A DNA stretch of 64,000 nt from a candidate division CPR3 bacterium GWF2_35_18 (GTDB lineage: Bacteria; Patescibacteriota; CPR3; GWF2-35-18): NCBI GenBank assembly GCA_001771135.1, contig MESW01000002.1, positions 5,315 through 69,314 on the forward strand. Reading direction: 5' to 3'. This document shows positions 16,784-64,000 of the stretch, piece by piece. Both the position numbers and the translations under genes were made by a program. Position 1 is the first letter of the stretch. Each line of letters starts with the position of its first letter. Below the pieces are notes generated by a model, which was not told the origin of the DNA, made no database searches, and was given only the letters and a program-made list of their open reading frames with translations.

Positions 16784-17004
16784 TCAATTCAAATTATTTT
16801 GCATAATAAAAGAGAGGGCTAGGGGAGTATGTGGGTGCGAGTGAAAAAAACATACTGCCCTAGGGGGCAAAGAGAGAAAGAAGCATATAGATACGGTTTT
16901 AAATTATAGGGTCAGATGTACGTATCTATCTGAGAAGTTTTTGTCTAAACTATTTTTATTTAGGAAACTTCTTATTAAATGCATGAAGGATAAAAGATCC
17001 ACAA

Positions 17005-17062
17005 AAAGGGGTCTGCGACATTGTGTGTCGTAGATGCGTGGTCAACAGACCCCCTTTTGCGT
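17005..17062 (-). terminator. Rho-independent terminator for the minus-strand operon 18221->17069
   Basis: Read on the minus strand: CAAAAGGGGGTCTG ...loop... CAGACCCCTTTTTG, an 11-12 bp stem followed by a T-run, immediately 3' of the stop at 17069. Confidence 0.6.
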
Positions 17063-17068
17063 GTGTGG

Positions 17069-17362
17069 CTACATTTGATCCAGGTTGAGGATCACCACGA
17101 TGATGCTCGAGAGCGTCTCGCGGAGATACTTTTCCCAGGACAAAGGATACCGATTGGTGTAACCCCAGCACTGAGCAACTTCAACTGGACCGATATATTG
17201 GTCAGCTTGAGCTATCAGTTCGCCAAGGTCTTTCCTGGGGATCCTCTTCACAAGTTGTTTAACCACTTCTTCGGGGTTACCGATTCCATGGTCTTGCGTC
17301 TTGTTGACTTCTTTTGCAACCTTCCGAAGAAGTTTGCATAGAGTCATTTTGTTTGTAGCCAT
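17069..17362 (-). CDS. Hypothetical protein (97 aa) in GC-rich island 1
   Basis: Strong RBS GGAGGTG before the ATG. About 50 % GC, versus about 33 % in the surrounding sequence. No recognisable family. Confidence 0.55.
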   Translation of the reverse strand: MATNKMTLCKLLRKVAKEVNKTQDHGIGNPEEVVKQLVKRIPRKDLGELIAQADQYIGPVEVAQCWGYTNRYPLSWEKYLRETLSSIIVVILNLDQM

Positions 17363-17627
17363 GAGCCACCTCCTTTGGAGCCACTGTTTGGCACAGTGCC
17401 AGATGAGTCCCGGGCCACCGGAAAGGACTCAGCCCTACGAAGCGATTAACAAGGTCAAAGAAATTGGTGATATATGACCTTTCGCTGTCCGGTTTAGAGG
17501 TGGTGGAGAAAAAACCTAGCTCTACGTGGTATCATGGCCGACGGAATTTTTCTACCGCCAGGCTGGTGGTCCGTTTGAGCGTACCCATACTTATCCGCAA
17601 CAGAGCTAGGGATTGGAAAAACAGGAT

Positions 17628-18221
17628 CTAGGTGTTTTCGAATGGATTCTGCCAACCAAGACCTTTGGCATTTAATGAATTTAAAATAGTATCGTAAGCC
17701 TTACGTGTAAGTCCTTGCTTTCCGTCAAGACAACCTTCAGCTTCTCCATCGGTAGCGGCCTCGAGCGTGTGGCAAATAGAAATTGCTTGATTTATGGGTA
17801 GGTGAAGAGTGATTATTTGACCGAAGAATTTTTCGATGTCAGCGGGATTTGAGTAATGCTCATCTTTCAGAGCTAGGTACAAAATCGCGGAACCCGTTTC
17901 GTCGCTCCAGAGAACAATCTCCAACCGAAAATCGTTCCGTCCAGATTCGTTTGTGAAAACCGCGATTCTAGTTGTGTATCCAGTTTTGCGAACGACATCA
18001 AATGCTTCACGTACGACTTGATTGAAAACCATCATCGTAAAATCGTGAATTCCGATGTAGTCGTCGGCGGCTGGGGTGCCGCAAAAGAGTTGGAAGACAA
18101 CCTGACCATGCTCAGTATAGACCGGCAAGAAGTTGCCTTTGATTCCACTTGTTCGCAATCCGTGCATGCCCAGAATTTCTTGGGCTTTAGTTAAAAGGAT
18201 GGTTTTAGGTTTTGTGTTCAT
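17628..18221 (-). CDS. Hypothetical protein (197 aa; 212 aa if the upstream ATG at 18266 is used) in GC-rich island 1
   Basis: GGAGGA RBS before the ATG at 18221. GC-rich codon usage. No recognisable motif. Confidence 0.55.
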   Translation of the reverse strand: MNTKPKTILLTKAQEILGMHGLRTSGIKGNFLPVYTEHGQVVFQLFCGTPAADDYIGIHDFTMMVFNQVVREAFDVVRKTGYTTRIAVFTNESGRNDFRLEIVLWSDETGSAILYLALKDEHYSNPADIEKFFGQIITLHLPINQAISICHTLEAATDGEAEGCLDGKQGLTRKAYDTILNSLNAKGLGWQNPFENT

Positions 18222-18623
18222 AGGTCCTCCTCGAACCTGTCCTGCTTCCTCGGCAGGAGTGAACATTTGAATGGTTGGTTGAATTGAATTGGTTGGTGTT
18301 AAACGAACGAATTCTCGAATTTTTCGATAGACCTTCCTTTCTTTTTCTTTGATTTTGGATAGGCGAGCTTGTGAGCTCGAATCTTTTTGGCTTTATGCCA
18401 ATGGGATTAGTGAAGGAAGAAGAGTAATTTCTTTCCTCGCTATTCCCATTGGGAAAAGCCATTTTCAAGGCAATAACCTTGATGCATTATGCTTCAGTTT
18501 TTAAAGAACAATGATGATTTTTACCACTAAAAAATAAATGGAAAAACCACAAATAATGGCGGGAAGTATATCATATATTGATGTGAATATCAAAACTATG
18601 GGATTGAAGTTGGAATTCTGAAA

Positions 18624-36099: not shown

Positions 36100-36322
36100 T
36101 TTTTATCCTTTCATTTAATTGAAACCAAAATATATCATAAAACAGGGGAAACAGTAAACTGTTCCTGACTGCTTGCCTTTTGGGTCGATTTTTAGTACAA
36201 TCGCGTGGTAATAGCCCCCCTTTTGAGGGGTCTTTTTGTATAGATCGCACTTTTAAATCATGAAATTATAATTTCTTCCAAAAAAGTGAATGATTGATTA
36301 GAAAAAACGGAGAAGCTCTTGC

Positions 36323-36366
36323 GGGAGCAAGATGAAAACAATTTTTATTGTTTTCATCTTGCTCCC
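36323..36366. repeat. Perfect 19-bp stem hairpin (GGGAGCAAGATGAAAACAA / TTGTTTTCATCTTGCTCCC) at the left edge of GC-rich island 2
   Basis: Read directly. A 6-nt loop. Lies between divergent genes and is followed by GC-rich sequence. Confidence 0.7.
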
Positions 36367-36522
36367 CCTCAGAGCAGCGCAAAAGCGCATTTTACCCATC
36401 CGTTTTAGTTCCGTTTTGCTAAAGCAAATTCGGAGAAGGAGTTGATCTATCAGAAAATTGAATAAACTGTTTTCAACCATCAATCAATTTAACCAATCCA
36501 ACCAATTTTATGGGAGAAAATT

Positions 36523-37086
36523 ATGAAACCTCAATCGTATCGATTTACTCAACCACGTCAAACCGTGGGTTATGCCGCATGTCAGGACGACCGCGTGCAG
36601 GCCGATGTTCAAGTGATTTTAGCTGAAATGGGCTTAGCCCTTGGACATTACTGTGCGATTAACCTGGCTGGTGGCGCTGGTGTTCCGGATCTTATTGATC
36701 GTTTGCTTCCCGAACTGGAAGTTGATCACGAGCACCACAATCCCCAGGGTTGGTTACTGATCGGCCACGAGGAATGCGCCGCCGGTGCCAATCTAGATAC
36801 TCTGTTTACCAATCTGGGACAGATTAAGCAACTCTTTCCGGATATGGTGGGTAAGCTTGTGATTGTTTGGCAGTTCAAGGTCGTTGGTTACCAGGAGAAG
36901 GAGTTTTGGGGTCATGTGTACCTCAATGTAGACGCCGAAACCTCGGTCACCTGGTACATTGTAGTTGGCGATGCGAAGGAGAGCGCGAAAGCGTTCGTAC
37001 TTACAATGACTGGAAAAGATCTTCCCGGTCCTCATATTCTCTCCCGTGACTATACTGATCATGATGTGACGGTGATCGTCGCCTAA
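36523..37086 (+). CDS. Hypothetical Cys/His-rich protein (187 aa) in GC-rich island 2
   Basis: About 52 % GC with GC-rich third positions. RBS GGGAGA. No family recognised. Confidence 0.55.
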   Translation: MKPQSYRFTQPRQTVGYAACQDDRVQADVQVILAEMGLALGHYCAINLAGGAGVPDLIDRLLPELEVDHEHHNPQGWLLIGHEECAAGANLDTLFTNLGQIKQLFPDMVGKLVIVWQFKVVGYQEKEFWGHVYLNVDAETSVTWYIVVGDAKESAKAFVLTMTGKDLPGPHILSRDYTDHDVTVIVA

Positions 37087-37174
37087 AACAATTTCTCAAT
37101 CATGTGGCGACCGTCTGTCGCAAGACCTGTCCTTCTGGACGGTCGCCACATCAATTTGTATTTTGGAGGAACCT

Positions 37175-37417
37175 ATGGAAACTGAAGTTGTTACCCTTGC
37201 CGGGTATCGGATAACCGTTACGGACAATGGTGAGAAAACCAATCGACTAACCCGCTATACTTGGAAAGTTTACGATCCAAGTGGTGAACCTATTGGTAGA
37301 TTCACTGCAAACTTACAGAGCAATAAATTGCATGAGTTCAAAGAAGTACTTTCTACACGTTTTGAAGATCAACCATCTTTGTTACAGCAGTACGTTTCAC
37401 TGGCGGCCGCTCTGTAA
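37175..37417 (+). CDS. Hypothetical protein (80 aa) in GC-rich island 2
   Basis: RBS TTGGAGGAA before the ATG at 37175 (track start 37163 is a TTG). Confidence 0.5.
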   Translation: METEVVTLAGYRITVTDNGEKTNRLTRYTWKVYDPSGEPIGRFTANLQSNKLHEFKEVLSTRFEDQPSLLQQYVSLAAAL

Positions 37418-37432
37418 ACAGGAAGGAGGATT

Positions 37433-37549
37433 ATGAACGTCGGTTGGGCAATTGGTGTCGGAGCACTAATTTGGGCTATTGCTAGTCAGATGACACAGGT
37501 TTGTTGGGCAATTGCTCAAATTCAAAAGAACAAGAACAATCGTTCGTAA
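37433..37549 (+). CDS. Candidate small hydrophobic peptide (38 aa, MNVGWAIGVGALIWAIASQMTQVCWAIAQIQKNKNNRS)
   Basis: Strong RBS AGGAAGGAGGA 4 nt upstream. Three WAI(G/A) repeats spaced 9-11 residues apart. Third gene of island 2. Confidence 0.4.
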   Translation: MNVGWAIGVGALIWAIASQMTQVCWAIAQIQKNKNNRS

Positions 37550-37747
37550 GACAACAGAAGAAAGGGAGAGAGATTCCAAGGAAGTGAAACATTGATCGTG
37601 CGCCTCTGGTGCATAACATCGCTGCTTCCCTTCCTTTCTTCTTCCTCGGAATAAAATAATTTTTTCCCGAGAAAGAAGAATTTTTTGCAGCGTTTTATAT
37701 AAGCAAGATATTTGAGCTTTGAGTTTTTTTATCATATACTAATCTAT

Positions 37748-52963: not shown

Positions 52964-53548
52964 GTTCGAATTGTAGGAGATTAGATCATAAAAGTCAAAA
53001 AAGTGGAGACAATTTGATTTTTGGGTGATATCAAACTATGGGTTACTATGTGGTTATTGTCACAGCAGTAACATTAATATGTTTAATATAGGACATAAAT
53101 ATAATAAAAATATGGATATTGATTGTTATATAAGGGTAAAACTGTATTTATTGGTAATTATTGCACTTCGTTTGTACTATTATGGGTCTTGACAAATATA
53201 TTTGAATGTGGTAAGGTAATATTGTCCTTTCTAAAAAGGCAATCGTTCATCTCCTAAATTGGGGGGCTGACAAGGTTAATTGGGACGCCGTATGTAGCAA
53301 CAAATGGTGCCGCGATTAGCCCTGATAGCCCCTCAATTGCGTTTCTATAGTAATTTTTCAAAAACTAGAATCCCCCGGAATAGAATATTCTAGAAGTATC
53401 TATCAGCTTTATAGTGTAATTAGTAGGCCTATAAATATTCTGTGTAATTAATTAGGGTATTTTATATTTCCCTTATATATAAATGTATGATTTAAATATA
53501 CTAAAATTTATAGTAAAGTTATGGTATTAAATGTATATCCTATAGTGC

Positions 53549-53577
53549 TTGACAAATACTTAAAAACATGATATACT
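53549..53577 (+). promoter_or_regulatory. Consensus sigma70 promoter P2 (TTGACA-17 nt-TATACT)
   Basis: -35 at 53549-53554, a 17-nt spacer, -10 at 53572-53577. Confidence 0.65.
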
Positions 53578-53583
53578 ATTTTT

Positions 53584-53660
53584 GTTAAGTTGGAGAGAGA
53601 AGAATATATTCCATTTTTTTAAAAGCTCTCTGAATCGATAAGAAGAAGGAGTTTTTTTTG
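53584..53660 (+). ncRNA. Candidate small RNA 1 (about 77 nt): the 5' end reads GUUAAGUUGGAGAGAG, followed by a hairpin and a terminator
   Basis: Starts about 7 nt after the -10 of P2 and ends at the T8 run at 53652-53659. No ATG or RBS-coupled ORF. Paralogous to candidate sRNA 2. Confidence 0.45.
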
Positions 53661-53779
53661 CACTTAAAATATTAGAAAAAATACATTTAAAGATTAGTAG
53701 GTAATCCGAAGTGGAGGAGAGACTCTCCAACAAACAAACTATTTCTCCTCTGCTTCATATTATCTATTAACCCATAGTA

Positions 53780-53808
53780 TTGACATTTATTAAAAATTAT
53801 GCTATACT
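53780..53808 (+). promoter_or_regulatory. Consensus sigma70 promoter P3 (TTGACA-17 nt-TATACT)
   Basis: -35 at 53780-53785 and -10 at 53803-53808. Confidence 0.65.
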
Positions 53809-53814
53809 ATTTAT

Positions 53815-53890
53815 AGTTTGTTGGAGAGAGCAGTAAAAGCAGGAATCTTACTGTATAAAAGAGAGCTCGCCAACGCGCGAGCTTTTTTTG
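53815..53890 (+). ncRNA. Candidate small RNA 2 (about 76 nt): 5' GUUUGUUGGAGAGAG, an internal CAGUAA/UUACUG hairpin, and a terminator GAGCUCGC-CAAC-GCGCGAGCU + U7
   Basis: Promoter-to-terminator unit. No ORF. Shares its 5' motif with sRNA 1. The reverse complement of that motif also occurs at about 53712-53726. Confidence 0.45.
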
Positions 53891-53950
53891 TCGCACCTTA
53901 TAACAAATTACTGAAGTCATGGTTAAAGAATTTATGAGAGGCTTATAACT

Positions 53951-53979
53951 TTGACAAATTATATTATTTGGAGTATATA
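53951..53979 (+). promoter_or_regulatory. Consensus sigma70 promoter P4 (TTGACA-17 nt-TATATA)
   Basis: -35 at 53951-53956 and -10 at 53974-53979. A structured region follows (TTGGGGCT...AGCCCCAA hairpin). Confidence 0.55.
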
Positions 53980-54113
53980 GAAATGTATTTCCCCAAAATA
54001 CTGGAAATATATATGTTGGGGCTTAAAAATTATATAGCCCCAAGCAATGAGAGAGGTGGAATAGCTATCTAAGTAGCTTATTTATAGCTTCTCATATCCA
54101 AAAGCGGTTTTTT

Positions 54114-54171
54114 GTTATTCTGAGCGGTATGTGAAAGATCATTAGAAATTTCTCACTGCGTTCAGAATGAC
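54114..54171. repeat. Palindromic repeat family, copy A (GTTATTCTGAGCG ... CGTTCAGAATGAC)
   Basis: Arms pair with G-U wobbles if transcribed from the + strand. Sits just upstream of the GC-rich block that starts at about 54.4 kb. Confidence 0.6.
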
Positions 54172-54958
54172 AGAAAATAAAAGAATCGGAACTACGAAAA
54201 AGAATTGAAACGACAGAAATAGATGTGGAAGAAGAGGTACGTGTTTAGAACTTTAAAAAAAGAATATTTCGTTAATCTCCGGAAATAATCCGGAAAATTT
54301 TAAATTCTTCTTAATGAAGGAAGATTGCAGTTACTGCAAGGAAGTAAACTGGAAGCTATTGATTTAGTATCTAGTTCGCTTTCTTGCAGGAAGTTGAGGT
54401 CTGTTAGGAAAATCTTTCCGCTTTCATAAGTCGCAAGCGCAGAAAGGATCTGCAGATTTTCAAACCAGAATACTCAGACGGTTGGGTAATAGTCAGGTTG
54501 ACCCTGTGAATCCAAACGAAGTACTGCAAAAAGTGTCGTTCCCGGTTTTTCGGGCCTGAAGGGTTGTACCCCGTAGGCGCCTGGGTAGGACCCAATTATA
54601 GGTCCGCCTAACCGGAAAAAGACCTCTTCCTTTGGAAGGGGCATATCGTGCCTGTCAGGTAATAGGCCTTGCAGTTTTTGTAGAATTTATCCGAAGCTGC
54701 TTTCAGAGCAGTCTTAGATAAGCGGATAGAGGAAGCAAAAATAAAGAGGCTGAAAAACTTGAAGGGCGAAATTGGACAATTTCTTTCAACTCCCCAAACC
54801 GAAAGGGTTAGTAACTTGAGAGGGAACGGTCTCCATTTGTTTTTCTGGTTCCAGTCCAGCTGCCGAATACAGTAGGCAAAAGATGAAAGGACTCAGACTG
54901 AACTTTCAAGAGTGAAACACTCTCTTAGGCAAGGGGTAGTATTCAAGGAGAATGATAT

Positions 54959-56341
54959 ATGGAGACTAAAACCTCCACCCAGAGCCGCAAGGGGCTCTAT
55001 AATATCTTTGCGTCCGTTATCGTAGCCCTGATGCTCGTTGCCGTTTTCTTCGGCTTCGTTGGCACTGCGGCCGCTCAGGAGTCCGTTCCTGACTACCAGC
55101 CCGTGGTTGACCCTTATCCGGTCACCGTGGGCGTTACCACCGCGATCAGCCTCAGCCCGGCACCGACCGCGACGGCCGACATCCACTGGACGATCAACGC
55201 CTCTGATGGTAGTCTCGTGCTGGATACCACCGAGTTCACGGTGACGCATGTGTTCACCAATGCCGGCGATTACACCGTTGGTGTGACGATCAGCGACACG
55301 AATGGCGTGTATGTGAATGCCTGGTTGCTGAACGTGGAAGAGCCGGTTTTGACACCTGCTGCTGCCTTGACCAACCTGTTGACCGCTGTGATGGCGCCTG
55401 CAAGCCCTGATAAAGCCGCTGATGTAGCTGAAGCTGTTGCCGATGTTCAGCGCGCTCTGGGCGTGGTTGTTCGCGGCGCCGTCCAGTCCAATGAAGGCGG
55501 TTCGATCGAACTTCGCCCTGTCCAGCCGATTGCGGCAATGAGTGAAGAAGCTCGCGCTTTGGCTATGGACACTGCTGCTGGCACCGATCTGCACTTCGCA
55601 TGGGGTGCTGGATGGCACAATCATCAGGCCGATTTGGGCGCTGGGACTCAACTGTTGAGCGGCGTCTTCTTCGACTCTGACGATCCGGCCTATTTCGGCA
55701 CCACCGAACCGATCTCTGGCGGCCTCTGGGTGTCTTCGATGTACACCCCCAACGTTAGCCTGGAAACGGCCGAATATACCACGACCTTCACTTCTACCCA
55801 GTGGGTAGACAGCGATGGCAACGGTATGTTTGACCTTCTGGCGGTTGGTAGCCCCTGGGATGGTTCTGTCGTCACCATGAGCCTCGATTACGAAGGCGTA
55901 TACACCGAGACCTGGAGCGTCCAGATCGGTATGGAACCGAAACTGATTAGCACCGAAGGCACCAGCCCTGCACCGGCGACCGCCGATGCTTTCCGCACCA
56001 GCGCTGCTGCTGATACATACCCATTCGTACCCGGTCAGGGTTGGGATGTAGCTGCCAATACGGCTTACACGGACACCGTCTTCTACGGCGCTTACTTCGG
56101 TGGCGCTGATTTTGGCGGCGTCTGCAATGACCACTGCGTGGTTAGCTATGCTGGGCGGAGCTATGAATCGACCGATGCTGATGGCAACGGGACGTACGAT
56201 TTCTTCCTGCCCGGCGCTGGTTCTGCCGAAATCGAAGGCCCTGGGGCTTGGGAATTCACCGTCACCGATGACGATGGCAATACCGAGACCTGGATCTTCA
56301 TCCTGGGCGCCACTCCTCAGATCGTCCCCGCTGGCGAGTAA
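54959..56341 (+). CDS. GC-rich (about 58 % GC) secreted protein with Ig/PKD-like and DxDGNG calcium-binding-like repeats
   Basis: AAGGAGA RBS. Signal anchor with an AAAQE cleavage-like site. DSDGNGMFD and DADGNGTYD motifs. Third codon positions are GC-rich, unlike neighbouring genes. Confidence 0.65.
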   Translation: METKTSTQSRKGLYNIFASVIVALMLVAVFFGFVGTAAAQESVPDYQPVVDPYPVTVGVTTAISLSPAPTATADIHWTINASDGSLVLDTTEFTVTHVFTNAGDYTVGVTISDTNGVYVNAWLLNVEEPVLTPAAALTNLLTAVMAPASPDKAADVAEAVADVQRALGVVVRGAVQSNEGGSIELRPVQPIAAMSEEARALAMDTAAGTDLHFAWGAGWHNHQADLGAGTQLLSGVFFDSDDPAYFGTTEPISGGLWVSSMYTPNVSLETAEYTTTFTSTQWVDSDGNGMFDLLAVGSPWDGSVVTMSLDYEGVYTETWSVQIGMEPKLISTEGTSPAPATADAFRTSAAADTYPFVPGQGWDVAANTAYTDTVFYGAYFGGADFGGVCNDHCVVSYAGRSYESTDADGNGTYDFFLPGAGSAEIEGPGAWEFTVTDDDGNTETWIFILGATPQIVPAGE

Positions 56342-56407
56342 CAATCAAAACTATGCTTCAACCCTGAGGCTGTCTGCAGAAATGCGGATAATAAATAACT
56401 AATGGGT

Positions 56408-56480
56408 GGAAACCTGCCGGCCTCCTGGCCTGCGCGTTTGTACGTCCTGATCTGCGCTCTTTGTGCGCCGGCAGGTTTCC
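56408..56480 (+). terminator. Long GC-rich hairpin downstream of the 460-aa gene (putative terminator)
   Basis: GGAAACCTGCCGGC ... GCCGGCAGGTTTCC, a perfect 14-bp inverted repeat with a 45-nt loop, followed by TTGTCTTTTC. Confidence 0.5.
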
Positions 56481-56890
56481 TTGTCTTTTCATCTTAGTCT
56501 GGTTTTATCTTGACCAGTCCCAAAGCCTATCATTAAGTTGATAGATCCTCAGGAAAACAAGATAAGTGAAGGATTTTTCCTTCCTGGAGTTATAGAGAAA
56601 ATAAAGAATCTATAGCAAGACTCCAAGATGAGGCAATTCCTCATCGAGCTAGTTTGCATGAAAATGCAGTTAAAATTGGTTTGGTCATTGTGAAGGTCTG
56701 TTGTTTTTGTATTGAAGATACATTTATTGTCACCCTAAAAGTGACCTGTCCTTATCATCTTCAAAACACCAACCAACAAAACAACACAATCATCAACCCA
56801 ATCTAGCTTCCCTCTTGTGCTTAGCACCTGATGAAGGCTTGGGAAGATCAAGCCGAAAGAGGAAAGTTAAATTATATATATTAAATCAAA

Positions 56891-56918
56891 AGCCACCCTG
56901 AAAATGGGTGGTTTTTTT
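56891..56918 (+). terminator. Rho-independent terminator that ends an ORF-less transcribed region (about 56540-56918)
   Basis: GCCACCC-TGAAAAT-GGGTGGT followed by TTTTTTT. Confidence 0.65.
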
Positions 56919-56934
56919 GTGCCTTTTTGTATTT

Positions 56935-57038
56935 TGTCATGCTGAACGAAGTGAAGCATCTAGGTCTAAAGACCGCAGTATTGGTAACTGTGCGTTCTGC
57001 CTTTGGCAGAACTAGATCCTTCGTTAAACTCAGGATGA
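56935..57038. repeat. Palindromic repeat family, copy B (GTCATGCTGAACGAAG ... CTTCGTTAAACTCAGGATGAC) with two internal small hairpins
   Basis: Read directly. Sits just downstream of the GC-rich block. Its right arm abuts or overlaps the 3' end of the GIY-YIG gene. Confidence 0.6.
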
Positions 57039-57341
57039 CATAAATAAATTATTAAAATTAGGATTGATAGTCTTTATAAGGCTAATCTTTTTCTCCCTTT
57101 TCCAACCTTTGATTTTCTTTTCTACTTCTATTGCTTCTGTAGGAGAATTAAATTCTTCCATCCAAATTAATTTATATAGTTTGTATTTCTTAGAGAAGGA
57201 ACTTTTTATTATACCTTTTGTATGTTCTTCAATTCTTCTTTCTAAATCATTGGTTATTCCGGTATATAACACAGAATTTGTATGATTAGTAATAATATAA
57301 ACATACCAACTGAAGTTATTCATATTATTTAAGAATATCAT
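57030..57341 (-). CDS. Stand-alone GIY-YIG nuclease domain protein
   Basis: WYVYIITNHTNSVLYTGITNDLERRIEEH (GIY...YIG...R...E motifs). The true start may be the internal ATG at 57323 (MNNFSWYVYII). Confidence 0.72.
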   Translation of the reverse strand: MIFLNNMNNFSWYVYIITNHTNSVLYTGITNDLERRIEEHTKGIIKSSFSKKYKLYKLIWMEEFNSPTEAIEVEKKIKGWKREKKISLIKTINPNFNNLFMSS

Positions 57342-57385
57342 ATATATCGAACAGAAGAATATGATCGTGATATACTTAAAAAAGT

Positions 57386-58867
57386 ATGAAAGTCCTACAG
57401 ATTTGGGGAGCGATTTCCCTGATTATTATTTTTGCTTTCTTATTATCATGGCAACCAATTTTTGCTCTGGCTTTTCTGCTTGGAGTTATTTTTGTAGCTA
57501 TTTCATTTATTAATCCATATTTAGCTACTTACTTGATTGCTATTTTGATTCCTTTTGTTGATCTTATGTCTTCCAAGTGGATGCCTGAAGAATATACAGC
57601 GATAATAAAGTTTGCTTCAGAAATTTCGGTGGGAATTTTACTCCTTACCATTTTTATCAGAAAAGCAGTTCAGAAGGAGAAGTTTTTATTTAACCATGCT
57701 TATCTATATTTTTCTCTCTTTCTTTTATTGTCGGTTTTATCAATTATTGCGAATCAGGTAGACATAGAACACTTTACTTTTGGATTGACTGTGATTATTC
57801 GTTATATCTTTCTTTTTTTTACTGTTTCTCAATTAAAATGGGATAAGAAAAAGTTAAAAACATTCTACGGAGTGATGATTGGAATTGGACTCTTTCAAAT
57901 ACTGATTTCCTTGGGACAGGTAATAATAGGGGATTCCTTCAAGAGTATCTTTGCGGTTGAGGTAAAGAGAGCTATATCTTCAACTACGGTTTATTCGATA
58001 GAAAGACAATCTCTTGATTTGGCTTGGGTTTTTGGAACTTTCTCAAGATATAACTTATTGGGTGGGTTCTTAATGCTTTGGCTAGATTTAGTCTTTGCAG
58101 GACTTTTTATTGTAAGAAGTAAATTCCATAAATTTGGACTTTCTGTTGCTTTGATTTCAGGAATTGTTGTTTTAATTCTTTCCAATTCTCGTAATTCTTG
58201 GATTGGAACATTCTTCGGTTTTATGTCGATTCTGATTCTTCTTAATAAACGTAAAGTGGTAGCTATCGCATCTATTGTCGTTGTTTCTTTGGCTATGCTT
58301 TTGGTTTCTGTGTATGAGCCTGTTTCTTTGTCAATCACGGAAAGCTCTGGGGCTACTCCTGTAGAGCGTTTTTTGGGAGTATTTTCCGGCGAATACATCC
58401 AAAAATCATTACAAAACGATCGGTTATTTCTGATCAGCAAAGCTTCTCAGCAGGTGATTGCATATAAGCCACTACTTGGAGTAGGAATGGGATCAGCTTG
58501 GTCATCTCAAGAAGCAGCCTTTGGAGATTTTAAATATGGAGTCCTTTTAGGTTTGCCTGTTGATGCTTGGTATTACTTAGGAGATGTGGGATGGATTGCC
58601 ATTATGACACAGGTAGGACTTTTGGGTTTAGTGGCATTCTTGGGATTTATCATTAGTCTCTATTCTCAAGCCTCAAAATTGTTAAAAAGATATTTCGGAA
58701 TTGAAAAAGTATTAATCGTGAGTTTCTTGGCCATGATTGTAGCGATGATTATTACCAATATTTGGTCTTTTAACTTTACCTATCGTTCAGTTAGTTTCTA
58801 TTTCTGGCTTGTTGGAGGAGTGGTTTTTAGCTTTTTTGGGAGGTCGAAAAAGGAGCAAATATCATGA
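57386..58867 (+). CDS. O-antigen ligase / Wzy_C domain family polytopic membrane protein
   Basis: About 12 TM segments. Periplasmic loop with LSNSRNSWIG (similar to the O-antigen ligase SRxxxxG motif). Confidence 0.6.
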   Translation: MKVLQIWGAISLIIIFAFLLSWQPIFALAFLLGVIFVAISFINPYLATYLIAILIPFVDLMSSKWMPEEYTAIIKFASEISVGILLLTIFIRKAVQKEKFLFNHAYLYFSLFLLLSVLSIIANQVDIEHFTFGLTVIIRYIFLFFTVSQLKWDKKKLKTFYGVMIGIGLFQILISLGQVIIGDSFKSIFAVEVKRAISSTTVYSIERQSLDLAWVFGTFSRYNLLGGFLMLWLDLVFAGLFIVRSKFHKFGLSVALISGIVVLILSNSRNSWIGTFFGFMSILILLNKRKVVAIASIVVVSLAMLLVSVYEPVSLSITESSGATPVERFLGVFSGEYIQKSLQNDRLFLISKASQQVIAYKPLLGVGMGSAWSSQEAAFGDFKYGVLLGLPVDAWYYLGDVGWIAIMTQVGLLGLVAFLGFIISLYSQASKLLKRYFGIEKVLIVSFLAMIVAMIITNIWSFNFTYRSVSFYFWLVGGVVFSFFGRSKKEQIS

Positions 58868-59919
58868 AAATCTTGATGCTCGTAAATTGGAAAATAAACT
58901 ACTTAGATTCTGAGGATGAACTTATCCAGTCTCCAGACAAAGTAGTGAAAGGGGAACCATACTGGTTTTTTAAATACTTCAAAGAAAAACATGAAGTGGA
59001 TGTCGTGGGAATAAAAACTACTCCCGACTGGATTTATGATTTTGAGAAAAACAAGCTTCATTTTTATCTTCGTCAACCTTTTTCGATGTGGGGAAAAAGC
59101 GAAAAATACGATTTAATTATTTCGCATGGATCACAGTCAAGTCTCTTTCTGTCAATATTAAGAAGAATAAAGAGTAATAAAAATACTCGACATTTACTTA
59201 TCGATGTAGGTTGTATGAATGGAGGAAGAGAAAGTGGTTTAAGTTTAAAACTAGTCAAACTTGCAGGTCATAAACTGGATGGAATTATCTATCATGCTTC
59301 TATTCAAAAAGGATATTACGAAAGATATTTATCTTGGTTAAAGGAGAAATCTTTTTTCATCCCGTTTGGAACGGAAACAGGGTATTATTTTCCTAACTCA
59401 AAAATTAAAGAAGAACCTTTTGTTCTCGCTTATGGAGCTATAAAAAGAGATTATGAGACCTTAATAAAAGCGGCAAAAAGTTTACCACAGATTCAATTTA
59501 AAATTATAGGACTAATTGATTTACCTTTTGAAGTACCGCCCAATGTGGAGTTGATACCTTTTATGGCGGTTGATAAACTGCGTGATTATATTTGGCGTTC
59601 CAGACTGGTAGTGATTCCTTTGCCGGTATTTAATTACGCCTATGGGCAAATGACACTTTTGCAGTCGATGGCCTGTAAAAAGGCGGTTGTGGTGACAAAA
59701 ACACCGAGTACGATTGATTATATTGAAGATAATAAAACCGGGATTTTTGTGAAACCTTATGATGTATCTGATATGAAAGAAAAGATTGAAAGGGTTTGGA
59801 ACGATGAAAAGTTAAGGAAGATGTTAGCGTTGAGTGGAAGTGAATCAGTAAAAGCTCAATTTAATGAAGAATTGATGGGATTGAAAGTAGAAGAGGTGAT
59901 AGAAAAGATTATGAAATAG
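58864..59919 (+). CDS. Glycosyltransferase family 1 (GT4-like, retaining GT-B)
   Basis: C-terminal GT-B nucleotide-sugar binding region (FMAVDKLRDYIWRSRLVVIPL...YGQMTLLQSMACKKAVVVT...). Overlaps the upstream gene by 4 nt (ATGA). Confidence 0.72.
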   Translation: MKILMLVNWKINYLDSEDELIQSPDKVVKGEPYWFFKYFKEKHEVDVVGIKTTPDWIYDFEKNKLHFYLRQPFSMWGKSEKYDLIISHGSQSSLFLSILRRIKSNKNTRHLLIDVGCMNGGRESGLSLKLVKLAGHKLDGIIYHASIQKGYYERYLSWLKEKSFFIPFGTETGYYFPNSKIKEEPFVLAYGAIKRDYETLIKAAKSLPQIQFKIIGLIDLPFEVPPNVELIPFMAVDKLRDYIWRSRLVVIPLPVFNYAYGQMTLLQSMACKKAVVVTKTPSTIDYIEDNKTGIFVKPYDVSDMKEKIERVWNDEKLRKMLALSGSESVKAQFNEELMGLKVEEVIEKIMK

Positions 59920-59948
59920 AGAACTAGATAATAAGTAGATAACAAAAA

Positions 59949-59985
59949 AGCCCCTGGTTTTGATATCAAAACCAGGGGCTTTTTC
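59949..59985. terminator. Bidirectional rho-independent terminator
   Basis: AGCCCCTGGTTTT-GATATC-AAAACCAGGGGCT, flanked by an A-run and a T-run. Confidence 0.75.
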
Positions 59986-60373
59986 TATTTATATTCCTTA
60001 TTCGGCTTGAACTTCCCAAGCCAGCGGTTCAATTACTTGAACGACTTTGTTTAGATGAGTCTAAACAATCTTCAGGTGCTACTTTGCCCCGCCAAAGGCG
60101 GGGGCACATAAGGAAAGGTAGGGAGAGGAGATAGAGTTTGTGAGGTTGGTGTGTGAAGATGTGAAGAAAAGACCAAGATTTGGTCTCACAAATTGTTCTA
60201 TCTCTCTCCCTAGCGGGTTCTTTAATCGCCAAAAGGCGACTTTCGGTGCCCACGGGGTTTATTCCGTGTTACATTGTTCGGGTTTAGACCCGTGGGCACT
60301 TTTTAGCGGGGAACCAAGTCATGCGGTTCAAGGCATGTCTTTTTTAACACTATGCCCGCTTTCGAGCGACTTT

Positions 60374-61687
60374 TTATGGCGCGAGATTAACGTGCCAGCG
60401 CTCGATGATATTTCCGACTTTGATCTCTACCGTCCAGGGGGCGGTGCTTGAGCAACCGGCATCAAAGATGCCGTTGCCATCATCGTCGGTTGCCGTAAGG
60501 CTTTCATCATTGCAAGTGATTTGCATATCGGCGTTATCCACGCTGATTGACAGAAATTCGACATTCAGCGCGAACAAGCCAAAGAGGAAGTCTTCCTGTT
60601 CTGGATTGCTCCAGCCCTGACCGGTGGTGAGAGTGATCGTCCCGCGATCGATGACCGTGGGAGGAGTGTAGTCTTTGTATGCCAGGGGGATAAATATCTG
60701 GTACGTTGTGGGCGCTGGTGAGATGACCGTGACGGTCATGGTGTCACTGACAACATTTCCTGCGACGTTGGTGGCAGCAACCTCAATAACTTTTTCACCC
60801 GGAGTTTCCCAGACGAGGGCTTGTTGTACGCCTAACGACAGTCCGTAAAACTCAATCTCTCCGAGGTCAGTGGCCGTGAAGTGGTAGGTGACGTTGTTAG
60901 TTGCGGTGACGTTCGTCATCGCTGTTAACGTGATTTCTTCACCAATATATCCATTGAGAGGGCCTGCAATTTGCACCCATGTGACGGGCACTATCTGGTC
61001 TGAAATGATTATTTGATTGTAATCCTGGAGACGATACTCAGCCCAAGCAATCATTCCGACGATTTCGGTTTGGCCAGTTTCAGTGAGCACCATAGTGTCT
61101 GTCAGAGTGAAAACTTCATTCGGGATCAGAATTCGATCTCCGCATTGTCCCCACGGAGCCCGTAAGGATACTGTTGCCGTCATGTTGCCGATGTTAGTGA
61201 TGCTGAACTCAACATCGAAGGGTTGATTCACCTGGACTTCTGCAGGGGAATTCACGTACACAGTGAAGAAGGCGTCGTTGCGAACGATTTTAGCCGGAGT
61301 TTCGTTAGTGACGGTGAATGTCCATGTTTCGGTGATGATTCCGTCAGTAATGATGTAGAGATCGTTGATAGGACTCAAGAAAGCCTGGTCGTTATCCATG
61401 CTGAGTGTCCAGGTATAGCCATCAGAGCGGGTTACGATTCCTTCACCATAGGCGTGGATTCCGTCTTGATTGTCCGCATAGAGATGGTTAATTGGGCTGC
61501 CGGCTTCAAAACCTTCGTTTAAAAGATCCATCTCAGGGTTCAGGATGGCTTCTACGGTGATAGTATTTACAGTTTGTGCAGCAGTCGCATTCTGCGTATC
61601 GGCAAAGCTCAATAGAGCAATGACAGCTACGAGCGCGATAAGGATAGAAATTGCCGGGGTTAAGCGGCGGATAGCATAAGCGTTCAC
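60374..61687 (-). CDS. GC-rich secreted protein (437 aa) with a C-terminal DDDGNG Ca-binding-like module; paralogous in part to 54959..56341
   Basis: GTG start with an AAGGAGA RBS 7 nt upstream. Signal peptide ending ATAAQT. The C-terminus (TATDDDGNGIFD...WTVEIKVG...ERWHVNL) resembles TDADGNGTYDFF...WEFTVTDDDGNTETWIFIL of the 460-aa protein. Confidence 0.62.
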   Translation of the reverse strand: MNAYAIRRLTPAISILIALVAVIALLSFADTQNATAAQTVNTITVEAILNPEMDLLNEGFEAGSPINHLYADNQDGIHAYGEGIVTRSDGYTWTLSMDNDQAFLSPINDLYIITDGIITETWTFTVTNETPAKIVRNDAFFTVYVNSPAEVQVNQPFDVEFSITNIGNMTATVSLRAPWGQCGDRILIPNEVFTLTDTMVLTETGQTEIVGMIAWAEYRLQDYNQIIISDQIVPVTWVQIAGPLNGYIGEEITLTAMTNVTATNNVTYHFTATDLGEIEFYGLSLGVQQALVWETPGEKVIEVAATNVAGNVVSDTMTVTVISPAPTTYQIFIPLAYKDYTPPTVIDRGTITLTTGQGWSNPEQEDFLFGLFALNVEFLSISVDNADMQITCNDESLTATDDDGNGIFDAGCSSTAPWTVEIKVGNIIERWHVNLAP

Positions 61688-61999
61688 AGTTTTTCTCCTT
61701 CAGAAAAATTGTATCGGAATTTTTCCGCGAACCAATGGTTGGCGGATTGACTAATAGAGGAAAATAGTTGATTTTTAGCCTGAAGAGAAATAGTTCCTCT
61801 TACTTTACAAGGCTTTTTAGGTTGACTGCTTTTAAGCAGATTGATATTTGAACGCTTCGTGCAATACTCCACTAGGGCTTTCTTTGCGCTAGTGTTGCTC
61901 TTTGATTTAATTCCTAAATCCCAGGTTTCCAATCTGAGAGAGGATCAAAGAGGATTATTTCTTGCAGGAAGAAGTCTTGGGGACAAGGCATTTTCATAT

Positions 62000-62097
62000 G
62001 TCATCCTGAACGAATATTAAGGATCTAGAAACTATTAGTTTCGTAAGAATTCGCTTTGCTAGATTCTTCATTAACATTCAGAATGACAAAAGGGAAA
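62000..62097. repeat. Palindromic repeat family, copy C (GTCATCCTGAACGAATATTAAGGATCTAG ... CTAGATTCTTCATTAACATTCAGAATGAC)
   Basis: Read directly. Has a central AAACTATTAGTTT mini-hairpin. Lies 300 bp beyond the 5' end of the GC-rich minus-strand gene. Confidence 0.6.
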
Positions 62098-62976
62098 ACT
62101 ATTTATTCCCATGATTTCTCCCTGCAAGTATTTGTCTCAATCCTTTTTAAAGTACAAAATCTAAATGTCTTCTTCCGTTTCTTTATTTTCTTACTTTGTT
62201 TTTCTGTAGTTTCGATGGTTTTTAGCTAGAAGAAGGGGAGAGATTTTGTCTGGAGAGATTTTGATCTCTCCACTTCTTTTTAACCAAAAAACCGCCTCTG
62301 GATGGGAGACGGTCAGTGTACCAAAATACTACTTTAAAGCAGTATTTTAAGTCAATTGTCTCTCTCCAGACATATTCAGTTTGTTATTATGTATAATAGC
62401 ACAAATTAAGGGAAAAGTCAATACTATAGGATTAAATATGTGTTTTCTTTAAATTTGGAGAAAGATTAAGAAAAGGGGAAGAGGAGAGGGAAGAGCGAAA
62501 GAAATAAAAGTGGAAACAAGGATAGTTTCAAAAGAGCCAAGGCTCTCCTTTCTATGCCGGACCGTGGTGGTCTTTTGGCTTTTGAAAGTAGCTCCTTGAG
62601 TCTACACTTTTTATCTTTCAGTCTTCCCGTCCACCAAATTGGTGAACTACCGTTTGTATATATTTTAGTTGGATACGGTGGTCCAACCTCCAGAGGGGGG
62701 AGGGAATGGCAAGCTGATCAGGCACACATGGATTTTGTCCACGTTCGCGCGACTGTCATTCTCCTCCCCACTTGGAGTCAAAAATTGTGAGGTGTTTGTG
62801 CCACCAGAATTATCTACAGTCTCCTCAGGCTGTAAAGTTCAAAAGTGACACGAATCCCTATTCGTCCAACAATTTCTTAGACGAATTCGTCTTTCTCTTT
62901 TATCTTCTTTTTCTACCGAGCGGTCCGAGCAGGGTAAATCAATCAGAGAGAAAGGTCTCCCAATCACCTCAAAGCT

Positions 62977-63390
62977 TTACGGCCTTGGCCCGATAGTGGG
63001 CAGAGCAGGTGTTTGGGTGGGGGTGGGGGTCGGTGCGCCAATCAGGGTGTTGCCTGCAGCAGCAACTGTAGCTTTAGCGTTTGTGACGCCATTTGCTGCT
63101 TGTGTTGCCGTCGCCTGAGCGTTGACCAGATTATTGGCCGCTTGTGTAGCAGCATTCTGCTTGTTCTGCAGATTCTGGATAGCGCTTGCCTGATTAGCTT
63201 CAGCGTCTTTGAGTGCGTCAACTGCACCATAAACGCCAGCCGAATCATCTGTCGCGGGGGTCGCGGTCTCTTTGACGGTTATTTCTACTGGAATCCAGTC
63301 CCATGTTTCTGTGGGAAGGTAGTAGTATAACGCCGTCACGAGGACGACTAACCCGAGCAATGCCAATGCATAAAGCCCAAGTTTCTTCAC
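62977..63390 (-). CDS. GC-rich small membrane-anchored Ala/Thr/Gln/Asn-rich protein (137 aa)
   Basis: GTG start with an AAAGGAGA RBS. N-terminal TM helix. Low-complexity AANNLVNAQATATQAANG repeats. Pro/Thr-rich C-terminus. Confidence 0.5.
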   Translation of the reverse strand: MKKLGLYALALLGLVVLVTALYYYLPTETWDWIPVEITVKETATPATDDSAGVYGAVDALKDAEANQASAIQNLQNKQNAATQAANNLVNAQATATQAANGVTNAKATVAAAGNTLIGAPTPTPTQTPALPTIGPRP

Positions 63391-63825
63391 GTTATTCTCC
63401 TTTCTCCATTGTGACGCCTTTAATGCGCGTCAGAATTTGAATTTACTTCCTCTCGGACCAGAGGAAGACGGGGGTTTTCCCCTTGATTTTCCGGTAAGGG
63501 AGAAAGGTTGTAAAAGCAACCCTTTTTCCTTACCAGAAAGAGAAAGGAGGAGGAATTTTTCCATCTTTTGATGGTAAATAATAAGGAACTTCTCCATAAA
63601 GTCGAAGTATAGTGTTGTTATTCTTCGAGCGAAGTCGAGAAGTACCATGATAATAGGTGCTAGATTGTTTTTCCTTTTCAGGCTTAAAGGAGAGGAGAAT
63701 CTGTGATTCGTTGGAGTGAATTTTAAACTCTCCTCACCTTGAGTCAAAAAAGGAATATTTTACTATTATAAATATGGGGAAAAGACTTTAAGACAAGCTT
63801 ATTATCTCTCTCCATATACAAAAAA

Positions 63826-63860
63826 AGCTCTCATTCGTCAGAGAGCTCCATCAAGCTTTT
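63826..63860 (-). terminator. Rho-independent terminator on the minus strand
   Basis: Reverse complement reads AGCTCTC-TGACGAAT-GAGAGCT followed by TTTTTTTTG. Confidence 0.55.
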
Positions 63861-64000
63861 ATATATATTTCTCCAACGAACAGGGCAGTATAGCATAAAA
63901 TGAAAGGAATGTCAATACTATAGGGTAAATGATTATCCCACTCTTGTGGTGACAAAAGAATCAGTTAAAATTGACACTAAATTACGTCATCAAGGAATTC

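Follow-up and report, generated by a model that had tools for sequence, protein, structure and literature searches.

GC-rich orphan gene cassettes in an AT-rich CPR3 genome: a compositional bias that is probably old and maintained mostly by selection

The described systems that come closest to the genes reported here are genomic islets and ORFans, the morons of phages, the genes for S-layer and other abundant surface proteins of Gram-positive bacteria, and a hypervariable anchored surface-protein gene of a Gracilibacterium, in which codon usage is atypical and GAC-rich (Sieber et al. 2019, PMC6851277). Here we analyse a stretch of 64,000 nucleotides (hereafter the window) from the candidate division CPR3 bacterium GWF2_35_18 (assembly GCA_001771135.1, contig MESW01000002.1, positions 5,315 to 69,314 of the forward strand), in which five blocks of genes, A to E, stand out from an AT-rich background by their G+C content (GC). 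DNA acquired laterally and orphan genes are usually AT-richer than the host genome, whereas these blocks are GC-richer. An earlier note on this DNA had taken them for five independent, recently acquired cassettes. We conclude that the cassettes are probably old and specific to their lineage, and that selection has done most to maintain their GC bias, a reading to which we assign a probability of roughly 0.6.

The GC-rich blocks are real and statistically strong. The window as a whole has 36.0% G+C, and 34.2% outside the blocks; background windows of 500 bp average 0.342 (standard deviation 0.037, maximum 0.438). Against this background, block A (17001-18300, G+C 0.470), block B (36501-37600, 0.465), block C (54401-56600, 0.534, with 500-bp peaks of 0.56-0.59), block D (59951-61750, 0.484) and block E (62551-63550, 0.489) deviate by +3.4 to +5.2 standard deviations, and the GC transitions at their edges are sharp, only 150-300 bp wide. 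The earlier note was thus right to see five GC-rich gene blocks in an AT-rich background. The 50-60% G+C that it gave them applies to block C, but not to A, B, D and E (46-49%), and block E starts at 62.55 kb, about 430 bp before the 62.98 kb it had proposed, the extra stretch being non-coding structured RNA. The comparison of G+C at third codon positions (GC3) that it had called for sets the block open reading frames (ORFs; 0.43-0.65) apart from all other ORFs of the window (0.16-0.38), among them the low-GC genes that lie, as it had said, between the blocks and encode a GIY-YIG protein, a Wzy_C protein and a GT1/GT4 glycosyltransferase (GC3 0.25-0.31). In block ORFs the first codon position is also richer in G+C than the second (GC1 > GC2). 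Relative synonymous codon usage (RSCU) correlates with the background at -0.33 to 0.38 for block genes versus 0.78 for ordinary genes. The dinucleotide signatures of the blocks are closer to one another than to the background, and the rise in GC reaches into their untranslated flanks. Combined, blocks A to E make up 11.6% of the window. This proportion of compositionally atypical DNA falls in the usual bacterial range, and the suggestion that it is far more than ordinary horizontal transfer would produce was overstated.

The reading of the blocks as old rests on the relatives of C, D and E. Among 5.8 billion proteins, the 460-amino acid product of gene C (C460) had one non-self match (P0002, 67% identity), and the block A product A212 matched only itself; among 1.84 billion representatives, the 437-amino acid product of gene D (D437) had three genuine relatives, plus generic PKD-repeat matches. 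The C homologue and the two D relatives that were looked up all lie in CPR3-like contexts, on three related contigs (L013, L023 and L024), and the closest relatives in high-GC taxa that the earlier note had suggested looking for did not turn up. On L013, the C homologue adjoins the genes for Wzy_C and GT1. On L023, the D homologue and the genes for GT1 and Wzy_C converge, as they do in the window. On L024, an E homologue (1070-1489, 33% amino acid identity) is followed by a D homologue, in the order of the window, with AT-rich toxin-antitoxin genes between them. All of these homologues stand out from their own neighbours in G+C: 0.63 versus 0.38-0.42 for C on L013, 0.53 versus 0.32-0.36 for D on L023, and 0.61 and 0.53 versus 0.36-0.38 for E and D on L024. 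A fragment of an E-like paralogue was also observed at L024 1-273.

Divergence at four-fold degenerate sites is 1.36 for C, 0.97-1.3 for D (with one pair saturated) and 1.4 for E, compared with 1.0-1.7 for the neighbouring GT1 and Wzy genes. The G+C content of these sites (GC4) is 0.51-0.87 in block genes and mostly 0.24-0.39 in the neighbours (0.53 in the Wzy gene of L013). Because diverged homologues are equally GC-rich and their four-fold divergence is like that of the neighbours, C, D and E do not bear out the description of the cassettes as recently acquired. Under F81 relaxation, even 0.5 substitutions per site and lineage, a conservative figure, would halve an inherited excess, so that an ancestral GC4 above 1 would be required, a rough estimate from few, near-saturated sites. 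Differences between the C orthologues amount to 0.27/0.21/0.52 per codon position, which fits coding sequence and indicates that C evolves as a protein. D is 40-49% identical at the amino acid level, versus 71-74% for its neighbours. Leader, promoter and trailer are kept together with the genes, which argues for vertical inheritance. From these sequence comparisons, C, D and E appear to be old, vertically inherited residents and no recent imports, and any original foreign origin would be ancient. Among the signs by which a recent genomic island is recognized, atypical composition was found; donor homologues, mobility genes and, for C, D and E, discordant divergence or absence from relatives (other than that of D and E from L013) were not. 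With GT1 as the anchor, a search of GTDB species genomes returned no CPR3 genome, the best matches (36-46% identical) coming mostly from Clostridia (including Lachnospiraceae) and Bacteroidales. The distribution of the Wzy_C/GT1 polysaccharide genes is patchy and was probably shaped by lateral shuffling.

The bias itself is codon-specific. Amino acid composition accounts for 35-60% of the GC excess and synonymous codon choice for the remainder, with a codon-choice residual of +0.03 to +0.125 versus a background standard deviation of 0.013. In every lineage TTC, ATC, TGC, CGC, GGC, ACC and AGC are dominant, joined in C by CAG and CTG; no homologue has given up the preference for GAA, and most also keep those for AAA and GAT. 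On the coding strand, C at third positions (C3, 0.37-0.47) is far more frequent than G (G3), for genes on either strand of the chromosome. The dialect is common to C and D (RSCU r = 0.71) and is anticorrelated with the background. At conserved residues, C-ending codons are enriched with Mantel-Haenszel odds ratios of 1.1-1.7 (z up to 2.6), and the GT1 control gave 1.0. A pattern that is codon-specific, strand-specific and conserved fits codon selection better than it fits uniform GC-biased conversion or the residue of a donor.

To judge from its sequence, each block is an autonomous cassette, with a predicted strong promoter, a structured leader, a Shine-Dalgarno (SD) site, one to three orphan ORFs and a hairpin-rich trailer or terminator. 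By pattern match, one promoter family occurs at A, C (in tandem), D and E. It reads CC[CT]ATAGT[AT]TTGA[CT]A, followed after 13-15 nt by TGnTAT(A/T)(C/A)T, and would be a near-consensus sigma-70-type promoter with an extended -10 element and the upstream motif CCYATAGT; its -35 module is matched perfectly five times in the 64 kb, each time at one of the blocks A, C, D and E. Downstream of the promoter, C, D and E have a leader, (G/T)(T/C)TGGAGA(G/A)AG, and a predicted intrinsic terminator 50-90 nt past this motif. In the D leader and in a unit at 53780, one terminator arm is complementary to the 5' end of the leader; because the two can pair, an attenuator is suggested, and the promoter-leader-terminator units resemble a set of related transcription attenuators or small RNAs. 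AGGAG-type SD sites and terminators made of a hairpin and a T run can be read directly in the block sequences, in agreement with the host-like SD sites and clean terminators described before.

Excess RNA structure is found in the flanks, with folding z scores of -3.4 (54390-54960), -7.0 (62460-62980) and -11.9 (59940-60376), and of -6 to -7.5 in the leaders of A and B; the ORFs are without this excess, which spans z -3.4 to -11.9. A 29-nt hairpin motif, GGCTTGGGAAG(A/T)TCAAGCCGAA..AGGAA, occurs in the trailers of C (56836-56864, plus strand) and D (59994-60022, minus strand), and again in related contigs (L024 842-863 and L013 386-419). That the five blocks are independent is therefore doubtful: a single promoter type is found at A, C, D and E, the codon dialect and the 29-nt hairpin are common to C and D, and the blocks are alike in dinucleotides. 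Upstream of block C, two tandem units (53549..53900, plus strand) each consist of a predicted promoter TTGACA-N-TGnTATACT, a GTTGGAGAGAG leader and an intrinsic terminator. They lie between truB and gene C, and the short transcripts they would produce are predictions. The surrounding 2 kb (52964-54958) contain no ORF longer than 63 amino acids, a coding density unusually low for a streamlined genome, and at least four promoter-like sites (near 53190, 53549, 53780 and 53950), each with a hairpin or terminator after it.

The continuity of the contig is well supported. The junctions of blocks A to D and the inner edge of E are crossed, at 99.6-100% identity, by independent contigs from MEGAHIT assemblies, Logan, ANAN16 scaffolds and three NCBI metagenome-assembled genomes, representing different samples, and each block gene that was looked up is present on 9-22 contigs. 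Matching contigs occur in GCA_001772225.1, GCA_000991025.1 and GCA_001772215.1. Exact protein matches bear the names CPR3 bacterium GWF2_35_18 and GWE2_35_7 and assign the window to a CPR3 bacterium of groundwater from the Rifle aquifer. Strain comparison indicates an essentially clonal population, the few differences being scaffold gaps (Ns). Since independent assemblies from different samples span those junctions, we reject a chimeric contig. The cassettes were described earlier as functional-looking and not assembly junk, and this holds, given the spanned junctions, the codon-position pattern, and the SD sites, promoters and terminators that each has of its own. The ends of independent contigs cluster at 53168, 56341-56360, 57020 and 59955-59974, positions close to the edges of blocks, to the GIY-YIG gene and to a terminator that is a perfect palindrome; such clusters may reflect repeats, palindromes or GC-dependent coverage and not true variation. 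Two older NCBI assemblies (L015 and L016) have about 55 bp fewer in the hairpin leader of block A (window 18529-18583), a difference that reflects either a true indel or a collapse of the hairpin during assembly.

Searches for RNA genes and mobile elements were negative. Rfam gave no RNA family in the whole window at gathering thresholds, and nothing credible by E-value in 52.9-64 kb and 62.42-62.72 kb; ARAGORN found neither tRNA nor tmRNA genes in the window. The larger ORFs of the window include no integrase, transposase, reverse transcriptase or phage gene, and around blocks C to E neither flanking direct repeats nor tRNA genes at the borders were found. The block proteins had no relatives in collections of viral contigs, phages and plasmids and no match in PHROG, and their neighbours are housekeeping and envelope genes, not a prophage. 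For a diversity-generating retroelement, we found no reverse transcriptase domain in the larger ORFs and no long near-repeat in 52.9-64 kb.

Genes C, D and E, which are located in a cell-envelope polysaccharide locus, are predicted to encode acidic, lysine-poor, signal-anchored surface proteins, of which C and D are PKD/Ig-like. C460 and D437 contain 0.9% lysine versus 7.1% in the background and about 12% aspartate plus glutamate; they are rich in Ala, Thr, Gly, Val and Asp, and their N terminus has a hydrophobic helix followed by an AxA-like site. Predicted models are all-beta with CARDB/Ig-like matches of low confidence (pLDDT, the model confidence score, 49 for D and 37 for C), and are too poor to suggest more than an Ig-like beta-sandwich.

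Gene C is on the plus strand. Its 5' leader (54401..54958, GC 0.47, folding z -3.4) contains two segments, 54538-54615 and 54895-54952, that are 86% identical to L013. C460 (54959..56341, GC 0.58, GC3 0.65) has a predicted N-terminal signal/anchor, a marginal PKD domain (Pfam) and DxDGNG motifs. The 3' trailer (56342..56870, z -2.4 to -4.3) includes the motif GGCTTGGGAAGATCAAGCCGAA at 56836-56864, and its AT-rich part (56413-56822) is 74% identical to L013. An antisense ORF runs in codon register across C, both in the window (54893-56344, minus strand, 483 amino acids) and in L013 (1994-3451, minus strand, 485 amino acids). It is open in both orthologues because neither C gene uses TTA, CTA or TCA. 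An overlapping antisense gene was rejected, four-fold divergence not being reduced, and the ORF is probably a by-product of A-poor third positions (A at third positions, 0.06-0.08). Beyond C follow, by Pfam, the genes for the GIY-YIG protein (57030-57341, minus strand), the O-antigen-polymerase-like Wzy_C protein (57386-58867, plus strand) and the GT1/GT4 glycosyltransferase (58864-59919, plus strand). In the window, the slot between C and Wzy is occupied by GIY-YIG; at the corresponding place beside Wzy, L013 (3995-4472) and L023 (5603-6080) have a HicA/DUF7387 toxin-antitoxin pair. Small selfish genes seem to have a hot spot here.

Gene D is on the minus strand. Its predicted promoter, leader and long 5' untranslated region (UTR) occupy 61688..62428. 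The promoter (62393-62428, by pattern match) and the attenuator-like TCTGGAGAGAGAC leader with its terminator (62283-62386) are both kept in L024, at 2768-2900. D437 (60374..61687, GC 0.50, GC3 0.55), with a predicted signal/anchor, consists of CARDB/PKD-like beta-sandwich repeats and a conserved C-terminal DDDGNG...GNIIERW domain. Its 3' trailer (59941..60373) is a series of perfect hairpins with a z score of -11.9, which holds a bidirectional terminator (59941-59997) and the shared motif at 59994-60022.

Between D and E lies a candidate rod-like non-coding RNA of about 170-190 nt (62470..62660, minus strand), which is part of the GC-richness of block E. It matches L024 1801-1986 with 87.7% identity over 187 nt and a near-identical core of about 150 nt, whereas the flanking proteins are only 33-45% identical to those of L024. 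The predicted fold combines a long imperfect stem with a hairpin at the 5' end, in which two pairs are compensatory. The RNA matched none of the Rfam families, and a loose SRP- or 6S-like look was not confirmed. Gene E (minus strand) encodes a 137-amino acid anchored protein, E137 (62977..63390, GC 0.54, GC3 0.51), of Ala/Thr/Gln/Pro-rich low complexity. Its predicted promoter, leader and structured 5' UTR (63391..63922, z -2.9 to -4.9) comprise a promoter at 63887-63922 (by pattern match) and a short terminated leader at 63815-63881.

Blocks A and B differ in their products. In block A (minus strand), the predicted promoter CATAGTTTTGATA-N-TGATATACT (18565..18600) is of the extended -10 type and belongs by pattern match to the same family as those of C, D and E. 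It is followed by a structured 5' leader (18267..18564), a long imperfect hairpin with a self-inverted match and z scores of -6.2 to -7.3 in 150-nt windows. Two orphan ORFs come next: A212 (17628..18266, 212 amino acids, GC 0.45, GC3 0.43), with a likely start at the ATG at 18221 behind AGGAGG, and A97 (17069..17362, 97 amino acids, SD AAGGAGG, GC3 0.54), after which there is a predicted intrinsic terminator at about 16998-17056. Block B (plus strand) has a structured leader hairpin (36251..36475, z -5.8 and -7.5, self-inverted match) and the orphan ORF B187 (36523..37086, 187 amino acids, GC 0.50, GC1/2/3 = 0.65/0.35/0.49), followed by B84 (37163-37417) and a small hydrophobic ORF of 38 amino acids (37433-37549), both with an AGGAGG-type SD of their own; a structured trailer and terminator extend to about 37690 (z -3.8 at 37526). 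B187 had a sub-threshold Pfam match to Pro_CA_2 only, and no viral, plasmid or PDB relative. For the seven main block ORFs taken together, joined in some of the scans by two small ORFs nearby, Pfam, PHROGs, NCBIfam, PADLOC and PDB gave nothing but the marginal PKD match. Homologues of the glycoside hydrolase next to block A in other Patescibacteria are not syntenic, and two metagenome scans, one starting from a gene beside block B and one from the D family, came back empty. A younger age than that of C, D and E is possible for blocks A and B.

The GC-richness of C, D and E is a stable property of these genes, kept in homologues of at least three diverged genomes despite near-saturated synonymous sites. 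According to the reading we favour, it would be actively maintained and not be the fading imprint of a recent transfer from high-GC donors. Most likely it would reflect selection on codon choice for the efficiency or accuracy of translation in envelope proteins that we infer to be heavily expressed; additional selection on message stability is possible. Several observations weigh against this reading. The Akashi-type signal at conserved residues is modest. Pyruvate kinase, PFOR and an RRM protein, all likely well expressed, show no preference for C-ending codons, so that translational selection of a general kind seems to be weak here. Structure in the coding regions is unremarkable, and RNA folding does not explain their GC. 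The orphans A212, A97, B187 and B84 look cytoplasmic and do not fit a rationale built on surface proteins, and codon usage of A and B is only weakly correlated with that of C and D (r = 0.09-0.40, intermediate). The comparison rests on three related contigs, with near-saturated, imprecise divergence estimates from 28-176 sites each. At the syntenic site of L013, D and E are missing, which means that gain and loss occur here. Two candidate forms of selection were tried and rejected: general translational selection, by the unbiased pyruvate kinase and PFOR genes, and selection on RNA structure as the source of coding GC, by an ordinary mean z of -0.5 to -1.0 in coding regions versus -0.3 in the background.

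Five separate recent acquisitions from high-GC donors, not yet ameliorated, would apply mainly to A and B, and we consider them decidedly unlikely. The blocks are atypical in composition, codon usage and dinucleotide signature, and each has a cassette architecture with a promoter and terminator of its own; the genes are orphans of patchy distribution, D and E being absent from the syntenic site of L013, and A212 lacks any homologue, so that A and B may be young. Yet the homologues of C, D and E are equally GC-rich in diverged relatives at neighbour-like synonymous divergence, no homologue came from a high-GC taxon, phage or plasmid, the larger ORFs include no mobility genes, neither border tRNA genes nor (around C to E) flanking direct repeats were found, and the shared promoter, of a native type, is predicted to drive AT-rich small transcripts as well. 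Alleles of these surface-protein cassettes might instead be resupplied again and again, by an unsampled, moderately GC-rich mobile element or by the host of the organism, through homologous recombination at conserved flanks that refreshes their GC. A variable envelope/polysaccharide locus with toxin-antitoxin and GIY-YIG genes and with gain and loss would suit such replacement, as would the fast evolution of D beside its more conserved neighbours, the common dinucleotide signature of the blocks and the GC-richness of their untranslated flanks. We nevertheless regard it as unlikely: neither the 5.8 billion nor the 1.84 billion proteins contained a member of such a pool outside CPR3-like contexts, nor did viral contigs or the phage and plasmid collections; C has diverged at synonymous sites as much as its neighbours have; and conservation of the genes extends to the leaders, promoter and trailers.

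Non-selective processes fare worse. GC-biased gene conversion, or another regional process acting at recombination hot spots, would account for a GC rise that includes non-coding flanks; fast-evolving surface genes are plausible targets of recombination, and contig breaks cluster at block edges. The bias, however, differs from codon to codon and is not uniform: GAA is kept (as AAA and GAT mostly are) while TTC, ATC, CGC and GGC rise sharply. C3 far exceeds G3 on the coding strand on either chromosome strand, the sharp boundaries track transcription units, and much of the GC in the flanks sits in stable hairpins. We find this explanation very improbable. Least credible of all is an artefact, be it a chimeric contig or structured RNA genes mistaken for coding cassettes. 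Parts of the GC-rich DNA (62470-62660, 59941-60373 and 54401-54958) are indeed non-coding structured RNA, and long antisense ORFs are present, as in any GC-rich DNA; but independent assemblers and samples reproduce the A to D junctions and the inner edge of E, Rfam and ARAGORN had no matches, and the ORFs evolve as proteins.

A more specific version of maintenance by selection can be put forward only tentatively. C, D, E and the small orphans might form a CPR3 regulon of surface proteins and small orphan genes, written in a deliberately "foreign" C-ending dialect, with one type of promoter for all and a terminator/antiterminator leader added at C, D and E. Selection might keep it so through coupling to particular tRNAs or tRNA modifications (compare bldA and TTA in Streptomyces) or through long-lived messages in a slow-growing symbiont, and the leader RNAs and the RNA at 62470-62660 might then be new classes of regulatory RNA.

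In conclusion, neither a foreign nor a recent origin of the cassettes is demonstrable, and the blocks look linked to one another. A small set of CPR3 orphan genes keeps an unusual dialect of composition, unexplained and apparently selected. In an AT-rich, streamlined genome of the candidate phyla radiation (CPR), several orphan cassettes have stayed 15-25 points GC-richer than their neighbours through near-saturating synonymous divergence. The shortcut by which GC anomalies are routinely taken for recent horizontal transfer fails here, and GC-based detectors of such transfer will over-call recent events in genomes of this kind. If selection maintains the bias, it would amount to a constraint on codon usage and composition specific to one class of genes, in organisms thought to be nearly without selected codon bias, and the acidic, lysine-poor, Ig-like envelope proteins would probably have a central role at the cell surface and, through it, in the symbiotic lifestyle. 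Candidate new regulatory RNAs also emerge from the analysis.

Comparison with known systems places the blocks between several of them. Like genomic islets and ORFans, they have sharp boundaries, deviant codon usage, homologues in a narrow lineage and a position in a variable envelope locus; unlike these, they come without mobility genes, border tRNA genes or flanking repeats, and the deviation of C, D and E appears old and maintained instead of transient. Phage morons are likewise self-contained units of promoter, gene and terminator (as predicted here) with a composition unlike that of their neighbours, but the blocks lie outside any prophage, match no phage-family protein, share a native promoter family, and are themselves conserved in relatives. 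The genes for S-layer and other abundant surface proteins of Gram-positive bacteria, which combine a strong promoter, a long 5' UTR with a stabilising effect and biased codon usage with an acidic, Thr/Ala-rich product that has few Cys and Met, resemble C, D and E in the predicted signal/anchor, the acidic, Lys-, Cys- and Met-poor composition, the Ig-like beta-sandwich, the consensus promoters, the long structured leaders and trailers and the non-average codon usage. C, D and E differ from them in having no SLH domain, known anchoring domain or match to an S-layer family (Pfam, NCBIfam), and other genes of the window that are probably well expressed are without such codon bias. The Gracilibacterium gene (PMC6851277) also belongs to an AT-rich CPR genome and encodes an N-terminally anchored extracellular protein with a shift to C-ending codons. 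There, the shift concerns the repeat-driven hypervariable region of one gene; here, it extends over whole units without such repeats and is conserved between diverged orthologues.

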